DNA from: Candidatus Levyibacteriota bacterium
GTDB taxonomy: Bacteria > Patescibacteriota > Microgenomatia > Levybacterales > UBA12049
Assembly: GCA_027459745.1 (NCBI GenBank)
Contig: DAIDHL010000002.1
Coordinates: 191,310-255,309, forward strand
Reading direction: 5' to 3'
Length of the DNA stretch: 64,000 nt
Below are positions 2,263-14,294 of the stretch, in pieces (position 1 is the stretch's first letter; every line of letters starts with the position of its first letter). A program made the translations under genes and the position numbers. The notes beneath the pieces were generated by a model, which saw only the letters and a list, made by a program, of their open reading frames with translations, had not been told where the DNA came from and did no database searches.

Positions 2263-2583
2263 ATGGTAGGTGCATTAATCATAATTTTGGCTATTCTGTG
2301 GTTCTTGGGTTATATTCATATTGGTGGGGTAGCAGTGCCCAATATACCTCTTTTTACACTTAATAGTCAGGTAATCACACTCTGGGATGTGTTGATTTTG
2401 CTGGTTTTGGCTACAATCGTAGGAGTATTACCATCTCCTTTTAGACAGATTGCAGGAGTAATTTTAATCTTCTGGATTCTGTCTGTATTAGGAATTCTGG
2501 TATTTGCCGGATTATCAAGTCTGTTAGTATTAGCTGTTGTTGTAGGATTAATATTTTACGCTCTTGGGGGCGCATTTCTATAA
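2263..2583 (+). CDS. Hypothetical small polytopic membrane protein
   Basis: The 106-aa product is almost entirely hydrophobic, with 3-4 predicted helices. No family signature was recognised. Confidence 0.4.
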   Translation: MVGALIIILAILWFLGYIHIGGVAVPNIPLFTLNSQVITLWDVLILLVLATIVGVLPSPFRQIAGVILIFWILSVLGILVFAGLSSLLVLAVVVGLIFYALGGAFL

Positions 2584-2604
2584 TTAATATTCTTAATTGG
2601 TGCT

Positions 2605-3225
2605 TTATAAAATTGTCAAAAGTTTTTGCATATCTTCCATTAAGGTTTTCTTTAAACTGCCGGTATATAAAGCAGCAGCAGGATGGTAAAGGGGAAAAAT
2701 TATGACTTCTCCATACTCTGTTTTAGCTTTTATCGATCTGCCATGTAGTCTAGTAATAGTTTGTCCGGATTCGGGTAGATTAAATTTATCCAAAATATAC
2801 TGCATAGAAAATCTACCTAGGGTAGCTATGATTTTAGGTTGAATAATATTAATTTGTTCATCCAAAAAAGGTGAATAAAGCTTTATTTCTTCTGGAGACG
2901 GATCTCGATTTTTGGGTGGACGATCCTTTACGATATTAGAAATATATACATCTGCTCTTTTTAGATTTATTGATTCTAGGAGTTGATCTAATAATTTACC
3001 TGCAGCCCCGCAAAATGGTCTACCTGTTTGTGCTTCTTTTTCTCCCGGAGCTTCACCGATAAACATAATTTTTGCATCATGAGCGCCTTCACCAATTACA
3101 GGATAGTAGTGATTTTCCGTTCGGTAGGAGTAAAGTGGGGATTCTTTAAGAATCCAAATTCTACCCAAAATATTTTTAAGTTTTTTATCTCGCTTTAAAA
3201 GCTCTGCGTTATTAACCATTTGCAA
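2605..3225 (-). CDS. Uracil-DNA glycosylase, family 4-like (UDG superfamily)
   Basis: Motif A GEAPGEKE with F-C-G-A-A-G and motif B HPAAALY are present at the expected spacing for family 4/5 UDGs. The product is 206 aa. The N-terminal Fe-S cysteines are missing, so this may be the SPO1-type subgroup. Confidence 0.7.
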   Translation of the reverse strand: MQMVNNAELLKRDKKLKNILGRIWILKESPLYSYRTENHYYPVIGEGAHDAKIMFIGEAPGEKEAQTGRPFCGAAGKLLDQLLESINLKRADVYISNIVKDRPPKNRDPSPEEIKLYSPFLDEQINIIQPKIIATLGRFSMQYILDKFNLPESGQTITRLHGRSIKAKTEYGEVIIFPLYHPAAALYTGSLKKTLMEDMQKLLTIL

Positions 3226-3260
3226 TTAATTCATATACTGTATATCATTTGAAGTAATTT

Positions 3261-4250
3261 ATGCAACATAAATATTTTTATACGATTGAAGCCAAAGACG
3301 AGGCTGATTTGGGCCGACAGAAAGGAGAGCTATTTGGGGATGTTGCTAGGGAGACTTTGCACAAACGGCAAGCAGAAAGGAACTGGTCTAAAAAAGTAGA
3401 ATTGGCCAAACATTATTATGATTTCACATTGGCTCATTTTCCACAGTATATTGAAGAAATAAAAGCTTATGCCAAAGCGTCTAATATCTCACTTGCCGAC
3501 TTTTGGCTATTGAGCTTAGAAATAGAGTTAGATTATATGGATAGCGAAAAATGCTCAACTATTGTTACCAATGGAGGTAAGTTGCTCTCACATAACGAGG
3601 ATTGGGAAAGAGGTTCGGAGGACAAAATTTGTATCGTTAAAAAAACTATTCATGGATTAACTACTTTAGAATTTTTTTATTACAATACCTTAGGTAATGC
3701 GTCAGTATGTATTAGCTCGAATGGCTATGTGATGACTTTGAATGACTTAGAATCCACAGACCGACAAATTGGTATTCCCCGTAATGTTATTGCTCGTTGG
3801 TTATCAGAAACAAAAGATCTAAAATCTGATTTTAACAAGATGCAGACTTTAAAGAGGGCTTCAGGGTATAATCATATTTTTATAACCACACATGGCCAAA
3901 CATGGAATTTGGAAAGCAGCGCCACGCAGTCTGTTCTCTATCAACCAGAATTACCTTATGCCCATACAAATCATTTTATAACAAAGGAGTTAGTTAAATA
4001 TGAAGCACCCGGTGATCCAGGTAGCACCTATAATCGCCTGGATTCTGCCTGTAAGTTAATGAAGTCTCAGATGTCAGTTGAAGAAATAAAGAAATTAAAT
4101 AGTGATAATAGTTTAGGTGAAGACCAAAGCTTATTTAATGAAAGAACAATAGGCAGATTTATTGTAGATTTAGAGAAAAAGAATGCGTATATCTGGCTAA
4201 AAAGAGAAGCAGAAAAAGACTGGATAGCATACCCACTAGATTTTATCTAA
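3261..4250 (+). CDS. C45-family Ntn-hydrolase-like protein (acyl-CoA:6-aminopenicillanic-acid acyltransferase/peptidase C45-like)
   Basis: The 329-aa product has an EKCSTIV motif (candidate nucleophile Cys after autoproteolysis) followed by SHNEDWE. Both resemble the C45 family signature. This is a weak, motif-level call. Confidence 0.4.
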   Translation: MQHKYFYTIEAKDEADLGRQKGELFGDVARETLHKRQAERNWSKKVELAKHYYDFTLAHFPQYIEEIKAYAKASNISLADFWLLSLEIELDYMDSEKCSTIVTNGGKLLSHNEDWERGSEDKICIVKKTIHGLTTLEFFYYNTLGNASVCISSNGYVMTLNDLESTDRQIGIPRNVIARWLSETKDLKSDFNKMQTLKRASGYNHIFITTHGQTWNLESSATQSVLYQPELPYAHTNHFITKELVKYEAPGDPGSTYNRLDSACKLMKSQMSVEEIKKLNSDNSLGEDQSLFNERTIGRFIVDLEKKNAYIWLKREAEKDWIAYPLDFI

Positions 4251-4558
4251 CTTTTATATTTCAGCCACTTATTTTGTACAGCTTTTTCAATGTCGATATT
4301 ATGATACCTTGCTATTAGCAGTGTTTGTGAAAAGACATCAGCAATCTCATCAGCTAAATCTTTACGTAATTCTAAGGTAGATTTATCTTTAATTCTACTT
4401 TGTTTTTGTAAACTTAAATAGGCTTTGGTTAGTTCTCCTACTTCTTCTTGTAATTTTAAAATGTACCAATCTTTATTACGTGTGATAGAAAATCTTTCAG
4501 TATAAATTCTAGAAATATATTCAACTTCCTCGGAGATTTTTGCGAGTGTAACTTTCAT
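4247..4558 (-). CDS. MazG-like nucleotide pyrophosphohydrolase domain protein
   Basis: The 103-aa product carries the EExGE...E..D metal-binding pattern (LQEEVGELTKA ... DEIADVF) of all-alpha NTP pyrophosphatases. It sits 2 bp downstream of lexA on the same strand, so the two form an operon. Confidence 0.55.
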   Translation of the reverse strand: MKVTLAKISEEVEYISRIYTERFSITRNKDWYILKLQEEVGELTKAYLSLQKQSRIKDKSTLELRKDLADEIADVFSQTLLIARYHNIDIEKAVQNKWLKYKS

Positions 4559-4559
4559 A

Positions 4560-5132
4560 TTAATGATATTTACGAATCACACTAATGACGACTCCACCAA
4601 TCATTAGGTCTCCTTTAGGAAAAATCAGAGGATAGTTTGGATTTGCAGGAACCAAGTGTACACCAGCATTATTTTTACGATAATATTTAATAGTCCATTC
4701 ATTATCAACACAAGCGGCTACCACATCGCCATTTTGTGGAGTTCGGTATTTATCAACAATTACCACATCTCCCTCATTGATGCCTTCCTCAATCATTGAA
4801 TCACCTTTTACAATAAGTGAAAAAATTGCTCCGGGAAGATTGAGCAAATATTCATATAGGTCGACGCTGTCATCGGCAAGCGCTTCCCCTGGGGTGGGAT
4901 ATCCTGCCTTGATAATTCCCAATTGAGGAATTGAGAATAAGCGCTTGGGAGAAAGTTTACCCTTGCTGTCTTTCTCCAACAGACCAGCTTCAATTAATTT
5001 ATTGACCAAGTCGAAAACTGCCTTTTTCGAAGCAAAACCAAATATTATACACATTTCAGCATAAGAGGGGAGACGTCTTTGCTGAATAAAGAATTTTTTA
5101 AGTTTATTACTAGCAGATTCGATTGTCATCAA
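4560..5132 (-). CDS. lexA: LexA repressor (wHTH + S24 peptidase)
   Basis: The N-terminal winged-HTH is followed by the A-G cleavage site (IKAG) and the S24 catalytic Ser and Lys (GDSM ... VIRKY). Start is TTG or the adjacent ATG. Confidence 0.8.
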   Translation of the reverse strand: MMTIESASNKLKKFFIQQRRLPSYAEMCIIFGFASKKAVFDLVNKLIEAGLLEKDSKGKLSPKRLFSIPQLGIIKAGYPTPGEALADDSVDLYEYLLNLPGAIFSLIVKGDSMIEEGINEGDVVIVDKYRTPQNGDVVAACVDNEWTIKYYRKNNAGVHLVPANPNYPLIFPKGDLMIGGVVISVIRKYH

Positions 5133-5140
5133 AAATAATA

Positions 5141-5166
5141 TACAGTAAACAATCGTTCACTGTCAA
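5141..5166. promoter_or_regulatory. Putative LexA operator (Cheo-box-like GAAC-N4-GTTY inside an ACAGT..ACTGT palindrome)
   Basis: The sequence tACAGTAAACAATCGTTCACTGTc lies 10-35 bp upstream of the lexA start. On the gene strand the core reads GAACGATTGTTT, one mismatch from GAAC-N4-GTTC. Confidence 0.4.
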
Positions 5167-5235
5167 TAGACAAAATTAATACCTACTAGTTGTGGAGTTG
5201 CAATGAAAACCCACAGTTGGTAAAATACTTTTCCT

Positions 5236-5523
5236 ATGAAATTACCTATAAAAGATGAATTGAGGTATTGGTCTGAACCGCGCAAAGAAGGTTTAAGATT
5301 AGCCCAAAGAGATTTGGAGATTGCCGCTCATGTAAAAAGACTTAATATTTCCAGCTCTGCACGTCCAGAACCCCGGAGTGTTGGTTTATACAAAAATTTA
5401 GAGACAACAGTGTTTCAAAGACCTGTAAGTATAAAACCTTTTGATAGAACAAGCTACACAGAGGTATTAGTAAGAGCACATCAGCTTAGCAAAAAACAAA
5501 ATGATAGCGGAACTGGGAAATAA
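5236..5523 (+). CDS. Hypothetical protein
   Basis: A 95-aa ORF with no recognisable motif. It lies in the lexA/HxlR intergenic space and may not be real. Confidence 0.25.
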   Translation: MKLPIKDELRYWSEPRKEGLRLAQRDLEIAAHVKRLNISSSARPEPRSVGLYKNLETTVFQRPVSIKPFDRTSYTEVLVRAHQLSKKQNDSGTGK

Positions 5524-5534
5524 GAGGGCAGTGT

Positions 5535-5831
5535 TTACTCTTTCATTCCCCATTTCTCCATATCATCAATTACGGTTTTCAGTGATGTGCCTCTCTTGGT
5601 TAAAGAATATTCTACATGTAAAGGTATTTCTGCAAATACTTTTTTGTGCACGATGCCATGCTTCTCTAATTGTTGCAACCTAAGGGATAAAGTTTTAGGG
5701 CTTATTCCATTCAATGACCTTTGTAGTTCTCCGAAGCGTTTAGTACCCGAACACAATTGATGCAAAATCAAAATAGTCCATTTACTGCCGATAATTTTTA
5801 ATGTCTTAGTTACGCCACAATGTTTTCTCAT
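5535..5831 (-). CDS. HxlR-family winged-helix transcriptional regulator
   Basis: The HxlR-type signature is present: C..T...IGSKWTILIL..L..G..RFGELQR...GISPKTLS..L..LE..GIV.K......P..VEYSLT..G. Confidence 0.75.
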   Translation of the reverse strand: MRKHCGVTKTLKIIGSKWTILILHQLCSGTKRFGELQRSLNGISPKTLSLRLQQLEKHGIVHKKVFAEIPLHVEYSLTKRGTSLKTVIDDMEKWGMKE

Positions 5832-5906
5832 AAAAATATTTAATCATACTATACAAAATGTAACTACTTTACAAAAGGAAGTATAGATGATATTCTATCA
5901 CAAGTT

Positions 5907-9463: not shown

Positions 9464-10066
9464 ATGAAGACTTGTAAACATTGTGGAGAGGAACTAATTA
9501 TCAAACAAACTCAGACAAAGTCATCCCAATTGCAACAGCTGTATTACTACAAAGCATATTATTTTTGTTTAAATTGTCGACGTATTTATCATGATGACAA
9601 GTTTAAGGTTATAAATCACTCTCAAGCTATGTTTAATGACCAGAATAATTTATCTGTCTCCCCTGCTGATGTTGAAATTTGGACTGACGGTGCATGTACT
9701 GGTAATGGTACGTTAGATGCTAAGGCAGCCTGGGCTTTTGTTTCCGGGAATGAAGAGCAAGCTGGTTTAGTATTAGGTAAACAAACTAATAATCGAGCAG
9801 AAGCATATGCTATTTTATATGCGTTACAGTGGGCAGCAAAAAAAGGATATAGAAATATAATTATTTACACTGATAGTCAGATATCTATATTTGGTGTTAA
9901 TAAACATTTTTCTAAGGTAAAAGTAAACCAGGATATCTTCAAAGAAATCGCTGATGTGATTAATACAAGTAAATTATTAGTTACTTATAAAAAAGTTTTA
10001 GGACATAGCGGGGATGTAAATAACGAAAGAGTAGATAAATTAGCTAATAACTTAGCTTCTCATTAA
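9464..10066 (+). CDS. rnhA: Ribonuclease HI with N-terminal CxxC...CxxC zinc ribbon
   Basis: The catalytic DEDD residues are in context: EIWTDGAC, NNRAEAYA, IYTDSQ, ERVDKLA. An N-terminal segment CKHCG..(27 aa)..CLNCRR precedes the RNase H fold. Confidence 0.7.
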   Translation: MKTCKHCGEELIIKQTQTKSSQLQQLYYYKAYYFCLNCRRIYHDDKFKVINHSQAMFNDQNNLSVSPADVEIWTDGACTGNGTLDAKAAWAFVSGNEEQAGLVLGKQTNNRAEAYAILYALQWAAKKGYRNIIIYTDSQISIFGVNKHFSKVKVNQDIFKEIADVINTSKLLVTYKKVLGHSGDVNNERVDKLANNLASH

Positions 10067-12356: not shown

Positions 12357-14294
12357 TTATAAATAATCAGGTAGCTCGTCTTTCTTGCGAAGTTTAACGA
12401 ATTCTTCAGAAATAACGTGCTCAGGTAACTCTAAAATAAAACGCGAAACTGTATTATTGGATCGTTGACCAAAAAACATACGCCTTCGGGCGTAGGTTAA
12501 ATAAAGTTTCTTTTTAGCTCGCGTAATACCTACGTAAGCTAGTCTACGCTCCTCTTCTAACTCATCTTTATCCATCAGACTGCGACTATGTGGAAATATC
12601 CCTTCTTCCATCCCTATCATAAACACATTTTCAAACTCTAATCCCTTAGCTGCGTGTAGTGTCATTAGGGTTACTGCATTTTGTTTTCCTGTTTTTTGTG
12701 GCTCACTAGAGTATTCTTGTTCAACTAAGGCTATATTTTCTAAAAAATCTGTAATATTAGGAAAAGTGATAGCAACGGAGCGTAATTCTTTAATGTTTTC
12801 TAGGCGCATAGCATCTTCCTCGATATTCTTATCATAAAAGTTGAGATATTCGGTGGCTCTTAATGTATCATCTAGTAAATCAATAGTCGTAAGTTTATCT
12901 TGTGGATCTTTAGCTTCTGGTACTTTTTCTTCTAACCACGCTACTGATTCCTCAAAACTAACCGACGAAGTATCATTATTGAAGACAGGTTTTTCTAGGA
13001 TTTGCTTTTGAAACTCCAAGAATTTTTTTAGTCTAGTCTTGCCAAGTTTTTCGATTCGTTTGTAGGCTACTAAATCATTGGGGTTTATCAAATAACGTAA
13101 ATACGATATAACATCCTTGATTTCTTTTCTTTCATAGAATCTAGTACCTCCGATTAATAAATATGGAATTGCATGATGTAGGAATGCCTCCTCGATCACG
13201 CGTGATTGAGCATTAGTACGATATAGTACTGCAATCGAATGTAGGTTTTTTTCTCCGATTTCTTGAATTGTTTGCACAATAAAATCTGCTTCTTCCTGTT
13301 CATTCAACCCCTCATAAATAATAATCTCTTCACCCTGTGGATTTTCCGTCCATAGTTTGAGCACTGGGTGAGATTTGTTATGACTGATAATGGTAGATGC
13401 TGCATCGAGGATCATTTGTGTGGACCGATAATTTTGATCTAGAGAAAATGTTTTGGAATGTGGATAATCTGATTGGAACCGCATTAAATTACGATAATCT
13501 GCTCCTCGCCAGGAGTAAATGCTTTGTGAAAAATCCCCAACTACGCAAATGTTTTTCCATTTCTCAGATAAAAGCTTAGTTAATACATATTGTGCACGGT
13601 TAGTATCCTGATATTCGTCAACTAAAATATATTTAAATTTATTTTGATATTTTTCCAACAAGGATGGATTGGTTTTAAATAAGTCTACGGTTTTAAAAAT
13701 TAAGTCGTCAAAGTCTACGGCATCAGCTTCTTTAAGAATTTGTTGATATAGGGGGTAAATTTGGCCTACTTTATTTTGAAAAATACCCCTAGCAAAATTA
13801 GCATAATCCTGAGGTCCTAGTAGCTCGTTTTTTGCCTGAGAGATGGCCCATAAGACTGAATTGGGTTTAAAATCTTTTTGAGAAATATCCAAGCGTTGCA
13901 TAGCTTCTTTTACTGCTTCCAGACGATCTTGATCATCATAGATGACATATGTATTTGACAAACCAACATATTTTCCTTCAATACGCAGAATACGTGCACA
14001 AAAAGAATGAAAAGTTGAAACAAAAGGGATACGTCTGGTGGTTTTAAGGGTTTTATTTTGTGTAAAATATTTGATAATTCTTTCCTTCATCTCTTTTGCT
14101 GCCTTGTTGGTAAAAGTAATCATCAAAATGTCTTCGGGGGAGACTTGTTTTTCCAATATTAAGTACATGACTTTATAGGTAAGAACCCGGGTTTTACCTG
14201 AACCAGCGCCGGCGAGAATTATCATCGGTCCGTCTGTTTGTATGACGGCTTTTTGTTGCGCTGGGTTTAGTTCCTTGAGCAGGTCATTAGTCAT
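12357..14294 (-). CDS. pcrA: ATP-dependent DNA helicase PcrA/UvrD (SF1)
   Basis: Walker A AGAGSGKTRVLT is present. The SF1 motifs II-VI follow (DEYQDTN, VVGDFSQSIY, LDQNYRS, TLHAAKGLEF). The product is 645 aa. Confidence 0.8.
   Translation of the reverse strand: MTNDLLKELNPAQQKAVIQTDGPMIILAGAGSGKTRVLTYKVMYLILEKQVSPEDILMITFTNKAAKEMKERIIKYFTQNKTLKTTRRIPFVSTFHSFCARILRIEGKYVGLSNTYVIYDDQDRLEAVKEAMQRLDISQKDFKPNSVLWAISQAKNELLGPQDYANFARGIFQNKVGQIYPLYQQILKEADAVDFDDLIFKTVDLFKTNPSLLEKYQNKFKYILVDEYQDTNRAQYVLTKLLSEKWKNICVVGDFSQSIYSWRGADYRNLMRFQSDYPHSKTFSLDQNYRSTQMILDAASTIISHNKSHPVLKLWTENPQGEEIIIYEGLNEQEEADFIVQTIQEIGEKNLHSIAVLYRTNAQSRVIEEAFLHHAIPYLLIGGTRFYERKEIKDVISYLRYLINPNDLVAYKRIEKLGKTRLKKFLEFQKQILEKPVFNNDTSSVSFEESVAWLEEKVPEAKDPQDKLTTIDLLDDTLRATEYLNFYDKNIEEDAMRLENIKELRSVAITFPNITDFLENIALVEQEYSSEPQKTGKQNAVTLMTLHAAKGLEFENVFMIGMEEGIFPHSRSLMDKDELEEERRLAYVGITRAKKKLYLTYARRRMFFGQRSNNTVSRFILELPEHVISEEFVKLRKKDELPDYL

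Follow-up and report, generated by a model that had tools for sequence, protein, structure and literature searches.

A lexA-mazG gene pair behind a predicted LexA operator in a Candidatus Levyibacteriota genome: a probable SOS-inducible operon for a putative nucleotide-pool cleaning enzyme

The window analyzed here comprises 64,000 nucleotides (nt) from a Candidatus Levyibacteriota bacterium of the Patescibacteriota (GenBank assembly GCA_027459745.1, contig DAIDHL010000002.1, positions 191,310 to 255,309 of the forward strand), and our analysis centers on a gene for the SOS repressor LexA that is followed, on the same strand, by a gene for a MazG-like nucleoside triphosphate (NTP) pyrophosphohydrolase, here termed mazG. 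Related loci are designated below by L numbers. The two genes and the promoter elements that precede them, in window coordinates, are the following:

5161 to 5166, minus strand: -35 hexamer (TTGACA) of the lexA promoter, invariant in L081, L082 and L083 and recurring in most loci of the clade
5144 to 5161, given on the gene strand (18 bp): predicted LexA operator AGTGAACGATTGTTTACT, which fills the promoter spacer, with its core GAAC-N4-GTTT at 5147-5158
5137 to 5142, minus strand: -10 hexamer (TATATT) of the lexA promoter, which ends 7 nt ahead of the lexA ATG
4560 to 5129, minus strand: lexA, 189 amino acids (aa), with an N-terminal winged helix-turn-helix, an A75-G76 cleavage site and an S24 domain containing S111 and K148
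4247 to 4558, minus strand: MazG-like all-alpha NTP pyrophosphohydrolase, 103 aa (PF03819), beginning 1 nt after the lexA stop codon

The start of lexA was taken as the ATG at 5129, which yields the 189-aa product of the database, while the list of open reading frames (ORFs) begins one codon upstream, at an in-frame TTG at 5132. The original prediction had described the protein as a winged helix-turn-helix joined to an S24 peptidase with an Ala-Gly site and a Ser/Lys dyad, and this description is upheld by domain search, alignment and structural comparison alike. The Peptidase_S24 model (PF00717) matches residues 71-183 (E = 5e-23), and all 31 LexA homologues aligned share A75-G76, S111 and K148. 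In a phmmer search against the PDB, residues 13-187 align to Thermotoga LexA (3K2Z) and residues 16-186 to E. coli LexA, with 1JHH also matched. The AF2 model presents an N-terminus of three helices (residues 3-17, 23-30 and 35-47) and a two-strand wing, and its best full-length Foldseek matches are the E. coli LexA-DNA complex 3JSO (E = 2e-14) and Thermotoga 3K2Z. The Pfam LexA_DNA_bind model does not match the window LexA, and the NCBIfam equivalog TIGR00498 scores 101.1 bits over residues 13-189, under its cut-off of 110.95; this cut-off is a score threshold and no biological feature, and the score below it reflects a divergent member of the clade. The protein is a divergent yet complete LexA with a LexA-type winged helix-turn-helix, and it is 94% identical to its L081 counterpart, with a ratio of non-synonymous to synonymous substitution rates (dN/dS) of 0.03 that points to purifying selection on lexA. 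PHROG matches of the S24 domain include phage repressors and UmuD, as might be expected if the protein were a CI-like repressor of a mobile element and not the cellular LexA. Such an identity is at odds with the full-length alignment to LexA, with the ClpB-LUD-HxlR-lexA synteny, which is chromosomal and conserved in four genomes, and with the lack of phage genes nearby and of any PADLOC match.

The presence of a same-strand, 103-aa MazG-type enzyme immediately after lexA was also claimed in the original prediction, and it can be stated with the gap corrected to 1 nt and the EExGE...ExxD-type motif confirmed. PF03819 matches the protein with 27.4 bits against a gathering cut-off of 22, and no NCBIfam model matches it. 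The acidic motif reads EEvGE...DEiAD, and in a 50-member family alignment, 35 members of which are matched by PF03819, residues E38, E39 and E71 do not vary, E42 and D74 reach at least 90% conservation, and Y19, K35 and K97-W98 are conserved as well. Sequence and profile searches of the PDB retrieve iMazG (2Q73), Sulfolobus MazG (1VMG), Bacillus MazG (5IE9), YpjD (2GTA) and DCTPP1, and identity to the nearest characterized homologues is 22-30%. The AF2 model consists of four helices (pLDDT 95.4), and Foldseek places DCTPP1, 1VMG, YpjD and iMazG at the top of its matches, with TM scores of about 0.65-0.70. All of the top 30 matches are all-alpha NTP pyrophosphohydrolases (TM 0.51-0.71), and all are MazG-type with the exception of the HisE-type MtHISN2 (7BGN), at rank 30. 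The closest structural relatives of the enzyme are dCTP and modified-dCTP pyrophosphatases. The family to which it belongs comprises 335 clusters in the collection of 50%-identity representatives (E <= 1e-3) and at least 1,159 proteins in the 90% collection; its members occur in Actinomycetes, Ktedonobacter, Flavobacterium and other Patescibacteria and bear no annotation beyond 'pyrophosphatase' or 'NTP pyrophosphatase (non-canonical NTP hydrolase)'. The protein also weakly matches the phage 'MazG-like pyrophosphatase' phrog_715. A phage or defence origin of mazG was considered and rejected, weak PHROG MazG matches being all that was found, with no PADLOC match.

Fold and motif suggest a nucleotide 'sanitizer', although we hold this role, and any choice of substrate, with less confidence than the overall reading of the locus developed below. 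(p)ppGpp degradation has been reported for E. coli MazG and for phage MazG, and the enzyme might instead degrade a signaling nucleotide of this kind, or deplete a canonical deoxynucleoside triphosphate (dNTP) to slow replication during the SOS response. The fold and the metal-binding motif are indeed common to enzymes with very different substrates, the weak match to phrog_715 points in the same direction, and a MazF-like toxin behind lexA in L014 recalls the mazEFG association. On the other hand, the closest relatives in sequence and structure are single-domain, dNTP-directed enzymes (DCTPP1, iMazG, YpjD and BA1554-type), the locus neighbors in relatives, a MutT-like Nudix protein and a uracil-DNA glycosylase (UDG), have functions in the avoidance of uracil and oxidized bases, and the window harbors no RelA/SpoT or toxin-antitoxin gene nearby. 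We therefore consider a signaling or replication-slowing role distinctly unlikely.

Upstream of lexA, TTGACA-18-TATATT is the best sigma-70-like match in positions 2400-5600, agreeing at 11 of 12 positions and enclosing an 18-nt spacer, GTGAACGATTGTTTACTG. Superimposed on this promoter is the palindrome ACAGTGAACGATTGTTTACTGT, at 5142-5163 and 13-34 bp upstream of the lexA ATG, the core of which (GAACGATTGTTT, 5147-5158) reads GAAC-GATT-GTTT and differs by one mismatch from the Cheo-box core GAAC-N4-GTTC, just as the original prediction had proposed. The bare 12-mer GAAC-N4-GTTY is by itself not significant, with three occurrences in the 64-kb window against 3.4 expected, and the other two were rejected as operators, as they lie inside the coding regions of uvrD and ribosomal protein S17 and have matrix scores below zero. 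A symmetric weight matrix derived from 30 sites in the lexA promoters of relatives, on the other hand, assigns 25.4 bits to the predicted operator versus 9.9 bits to the next-best site of the window, and the maxima of 20 shuffled windows range from 8 to 20 bits (top 19.6).

Conservation singles out the same site. The block TTGACAGTGAACGwTyGTTTACTkTATAyT is kept in L081, L082 and L083 while its flanks diverge. Beyond these close relatives, a RAAC-N4-GTTY box lies between TTGACA-like and TATAAT-like hexamers upstream of lexA in most of the loci surveyed (48 genome and 16 metagenome loci), at the same position; these come from Patescibacteria, the PVC group, some Deltaproteobacteria-like metagenome-assembled genomes and the Betaproteobacteria Gallionella, Sideroxydans and Sulfuricella, and all encode a LexA of the window clade. 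Overall, 46 of about 65 related lexA loci carry a box of at least 12 bits. Half-sites vary symmetrically among relatives (GAAC/GTTC, AAAC/GTTT and GTAC/GTAC), as expected for a site read by a dimeric protein; the L107 and L004 boxes read AAAC...GTTT, and the window box falls within its own clade consensus, RAAC-N4-GTTY. The outer arms of the palindrome, ACAGT...ACTGT, are explained by the extended consensus AGTRAAC-N4-GTTYACT together with the margins of the two promoter hexamers. The footprint in close relatives, the clade-wide position of the box and its matrix score thus identify the palindrome as a predicted LexA operator of the Gram-positive, Cheo-box-like type in lexA's own promoter. Computationally, autoregulation of lexA through a dyad operator is supported by this 25.4-bit box, which sits in the promoter spacer and is conserved across the clade.

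A terminator scan, however, also flags this palindrome (5163-5142) as a 9-bp stem followed by ATATTATTTT, and as RNA it is predicted to fold at -10.5 kcal/mol (z = -2.7), which would agree with the palindrome being an RNA hairpin acting as a terminator or attenuator. Yet only three pairs of the stem are G-C, its position between the -35 and -10 elements puts it ahead of the predicted transcription start, the nearest upstream gene on the same strand ends 370 nt away, and the RAAC/GTTY bases themselves are kept in different phyla, with constant spacing to the -35, the -10 and the start codon. An explanation of the locus by such a hairpin, or by the CI-like repressor discussed above, is in our view highly improbable.

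Across the 64-kb window, to which the matrix scan for further operators was applied, no second site rises over shuffle noise at the UDG gene, at uvrD or elsewhere.

The architecture of the predicted promoter bears on how lexA and mazG might be expressed. With the -10 element ending 7 nt before the ATG, transcription is predicted to start near 5129-5130, giving a leaderless mRNA or one with a 1-nt leader, and the lexA-mazG transcript is thus probably leaderless. Of the 46 loci whose box reaches 12 bits, 21 have 20-21 nt between the box center and the first in-frame start codon; this is the modal distance, and it corresponds to a start codon 6-8 nt after the -10 element. Leaderless lexA genes appear to be a clade-wide feature, since the -10 ends 6-8 nt before the start in Patescibacteria, in the PVC group and for the second LexA of Betaproteobacteria. 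At the junction between the two genes, UAAUAUG, the lexA stop codon TAA (4562-4560) is separated from the mazG ATG at 4558 by the single base 4559. No Shine-Dalgarno sequence was found at either lexA or mazG, and the ribosomal-protein genes of the window carry AGGAG or AAGGAGG; this absence and the tight junction make termination-reinitiation the simplest reading of mazG translation. No terminator was found between lexA and mazG, and a scan of the window with Rfam gave no matches. Downstream, a weak terminator-like hairpin is seen on the minus strand at 4023-4006.

Given this layout, we consider it probable, with moderate confidence, that lexA and mazG constitute an autoregulated, SOS-inducible operon of two genes that makes a dNTP-cleaning enzyme, and two of its components, the predicted operator and co-transcription, we hold with greater confidence than the whole. 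In such an operon, a LexA dimer bound to AGTGAAC-N4-GTTTACT would block RNA polymerase until DNA damage led to RecA filaments on single-stranded DNA and, through them, to self-cleavage of LexA at A75-G76 by means of S111 and K148. The promoter would then fire and produce a leaderless lexA-mazG mRNA, from which the MazG-like protein would be made by termination-reinitiation coupling. As a tetrameric four-helix-bundle enzyme, it would convert (d)NTPs to (d)NMPs and pyrophosphate, and its most plausible role would be the removal of damaged or non-canonical dNTPs, leaving a clean pool for repair and gap-filling synthesis.

Several points weigh against this proposal. Co-transcription, leaderless initiation, LexA binding, translational coupling, SOS induction and enzyme activity are all steps that we infer. 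A promoter-like match within lexA (4708-4680, 10 of 12 positions) could drive LexA-independent expression of mazG, although such matches are common in the AT-rich DNA of the window (22 found versus 12.8 expected), which tempers its significance. The gene pair is, moreover, restricted in distribution. It is intact in two genomes, that of the window and L081 (GCA_027459725.1), a search for close MazG relatives having returned as sole near ortholog the L081 protein, with 76% identity and the same junction and 1-nt spacing. Within the fetched flanks of 80 genome and 18 metagenome loci, mazG was found next to lexA in L081 only, the pseudogene of L107 being added later. This pseudogene, uncalled and situated behind lexA at L107 5570-5878, occurs in a genome whose LexA is 92% identical to that of the window; it has lost its start and suffered a 2-nt deletion, it is interrupted by four in-frame stops, and its catalytic motifs read KEGIE and HETTD in place of EEVGE and DEIAD. 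At 83-84% LexA identity (L082, L085/L086) there is no mazG at all, and among five other family members (L084, L103-L106) none adjoins lexA and none has a LexA box. A pairing confined to one lineage and decayed in L107 is a dispensable one. The lexA-mazG pairing is real, but its range is a single narrow lineage, in which one close relative has already let it decay. What remains of the earlier claim that a MazG enzyme has been placed under direct SOS control is a pair that looks like one transcription unit behind a LexA-type box, and the pairing is not a general design.

This distribution lends itself to another interpretation, in which mazG is a recently acquired accessory gene riding the lexA promoter, so that the link is real but not adaptive and the gene is on its way to loss. 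The clear pseudogene and the limitation of the intact pair to two genomes both agree with it, as does the variability, among relatives, of the segment from lexA to the downstream conserved genes. Furthermore, the nearest other family members, only about 50% identical, have unrelated gene surroundings in Actinomycetes, Flavobacterium, Ktedonobacter and other Patescibacteria, which suggests horizontal acquisition. Sequence evolution in the two intact copies speaks otherwise. The dN/dS of mazG between the window and L081 is about 0.09, an approximate figure with dS above 1, and points to purifying selection in both; both lineages have kept the start codon, the 1-nt junction and every catalytic residue. 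In relatives, in addition, the slot behind lexA has been filled repeatedly by damage-related genes, which argues that its occupants are selected for SOS wiring. We thus regard passive carriage of mazG as possible but rather unlikely, and favor the SOS-inducible operon.

The slot itself was surveyed in 30 loci, scoring same-strand genes whose start is no more than about 70 nt from the lexA stop. A Y-family polymerase follows lexA in six of them, recognized by the Pfam IMS model in L005 and L020 and by N-terminal sequence in L008, L010, L011 and L018, in keeping with the original remark that a MazG enzyme is an unusual occupant where polymerases are typical. Other occupants are a UmuD-like S24 protein (L028), a methylpurine-DNA glycosylase (L019, 4553-5083, 0-nt gap), a HIT-family hydrolase (L004, 4572-5042, 13-nt gap), glucose-6-phosphate dehydrogenase (L007) and the MazF/PemK-like toxin of L014 (1622-2014, 44-nt gap). 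The position 3' of lexA looks like a generic slot for damage-related cargo, into which, in one lineage of Patescibacteria, mazG may have been inserted beside a MutT-like Nudix gene that was later decayed or replaced.

The surroundings of the operon are relevant to this history. The following features of the window come into consideration:

5236 to 5523, plus strand: ORF of 95 aa (orf95), divergent from the lexA promoter
3261 to 4250, plus strand: C45-family autoproteolytic acyltransferase/hydrolase (PF03417, NF040521), convergent to mazG
2605 to 3225, minus strand: family-4 UDG (TIGR00758), with its likely true start at the ATG at 3219
12357 to 14294, minus strand: UvrD/PcrA-type helicase, without a LexA box upstream

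The arrangement of these genes differs among relatives. In L085/L086 the order is HxlR, lexA, a convergent and intact MutT-like Nudix gene (L086 3580-4014, minus strand) and UDG, the Nudix protein being 144 aa long, with mutT as best NCBIfam match (62.7 bits, under its cut-off). L081 carries lexA-mazG, the same Nudix gene in frameshifted form (5452-5843, minus strand; the frameshift is either real or an assembly error) and UDG. In L107, lexA is followed by the mazG pseudogene, a 4-codon stub of the Nudix gene (about 5950) and UDG, while the window has lexA-mazG, the C45 gene and UDG, and no Nudix homologue anywhere in its 64 kb. The C45 gene stands where relatives have the Nudix gene; its start, ATGCAAC, is that of the Nudix gene and lies in the same divergent intergenic region shared with UDG, and GTTGCAT is invariant in all four intergenic regions aligned. 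The simplest history starts from an insertion of mazG behind lexA in the ancestor common to the window, L081 and L107, after which all three lost the Nudix gene and L107 also lost mazG. Since L107 has lost both mazG and the Nudix gene, this history fits neutral accessory turnover as well as it fits the displacement of one enzyme by another.

The last 4 nt of mazG (4247-4250) are also the last of the convergent C45 gene, no terminator lies between the two, and SOS-induced transcription would consequently run antisense into the C45 gene. On the other side of the locus, orf95 has no Pfam, PHROG or PADLOC match; it is found only where mazG is intact, in the window and, as a 93-aa counterpart, in L081, whereas L082, L086 and L107 lack it and have HxlR immediately ahead of lexA. 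The end of a promoter-like site (5198-5226) lies 9 nt upstream of the ATG of this ORF.

The proximity of the UDG gene to lexA had led the original prediction to suggest a compact damage-response unit. The enzyme is a family-4 UDG, scored at 195.7 bits by TIGR00758 against a cut-off of 125.3, and it is a conserved neighbor of lexA in four related genomes, with synteny in L081, L085/L086 and L107. Yet no LexA box over noise was found near 3219-3260, the nearest matrix match being intragenic and of 6 bits, nor was any found in the conserved UDG promoter region of L081, L086 and L107, and the convergent C45 gene separates UDG from the lexA operon. On present evidence, UDG is not counted in the SOS unit. 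At the UvrD/PcrA-type helicase gene, the match GAACCCGGGTTT (14183-14194) lies inside the coding sequence and has a matrix score of -10 bits. Elsewhere in the window, a 200-aa ORF (9464-10066, plus strand) has a Cys-rich N-terminus (CxxC...CxxC) and counterparts in L081, L082 and L107 annotated as RNase_H; located next to ClpB, it may encode a zinc-ribbon-RNase H fusion.

If slot and history are read jointly, the site 3' of a leaderless, self-repressed lexA might serve, in genome-reduced Patescibacteria, as a plug-in slot in which, at the locus studied here, an SOS-wired MazG enzyme displaced the MutT-like Nudix protein. Single effectors could in this way gain damage wiring through operon fusion, without evolving operators of their own, and MazG would have taken over pool cleaning from the adjacent, constitutive Nudix gene, which then decayed in L081 or was overwritten by the C45 gene in the window. 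We put forward this joint reading only as a speculation and deem it quite unlikely, but, if true, the displacement would constitute a non-orthologous replacement in house-cleaning combined with regulatory rewiring.

SOS regulons differ widely in content, and most elements of the present locus belong to known kinds. The operator resembles that of Cheo-box autoregulation in its palindromic core of the GAAC-N4-GTTC type overlapping lexA's own promoter and in the Ala-Gly site and Ser/Lys dyad of the repressor, and the clade of the window LexA includes the Gallionella, Sideroxydans, Sulfuricella, PVC and Patescibacteria loci that carry the box. It differs in that the box is relaxed to RAAC-N4-GTTY in the window sub-lineage (GAAC...GTTT in the window itself) and lies within a promoter that leaves 6-8 nt between its -10 and the start codon, which implies an mRNA without a leader. 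A GAAC-N4-GTTC-type box was reportedly described for the second LexA of some Betaproteobacteria by Sanchez-Alberola and co-workers in 2015, and this type was reportedly studied in Patescibacteria by Sanchez-Osuna, Barbe and Erill in 2017, both papers being cited in PMC8565304 and PMC7739468; a GAAC-type operator for this LexA clade is therefore not new in itself.

Operons of lexA with dinB or other Y-family polymerase genes likewise place an effector directly 3' of lexA under a shared LexA-repressed promoter, but the cargo in the window is a MazG-type NTP pyrophosphohydrolase and no translesion polymerase. The protein shares with the single-domain MazG enzymes (iMazG 2Q73, DCTPP1/RS21-C6, YpjD 2GTA, 5IE9 and 1VMG) a four-helix bundle of about 100 aa, the EExxE...ExxD Mg2+-binding motif and house-cleaning annotations, whereas it stands apart from them, at 22-30% identity, in an uncharacterized family of its own, and its subgroup is the only one found joined into a lexA operon. 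SOS-regulated base-excision systems built on uracil-DNA glycosylases have been reported for Verrucomicrobia, Alphaproteobacteria and Bacteroidetes (PMC8565304), and the family-4 UDG close to lexA in four related genomes is reminiscent of them, but here, as in L081, L086 and L107, the UDG gene lacks a LexA box, and a convergent gene intervenes. No description of a lexA-mazG operon or of a LexA-regulated MazG was found in the searchable literature, nor are MazG-type pool hydrolases among the SOS regulon members described there. Hence, LexA, box type and lexA-led operons are of known kinds, and MazG as cargo is the new element with respect to that literature.

The practical value of the finding is limited, as it concerns a rare, lineage-specific arrangement in an uncultured organism, with a predicted function. 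The locus nevertheless offers a small and clean example of regulon turnover, in which an intact Nudix gene is followed by the insertion of mazG, the loss of the Nudix gene and the decay of mazG in L107. Should the SOS-inducible operon proposed here be real, a bacterium dependent on salvaged nucleotides would have coupled the cleaning of its nucleotide pool to DNA damage simply by appending a gene to lexA.

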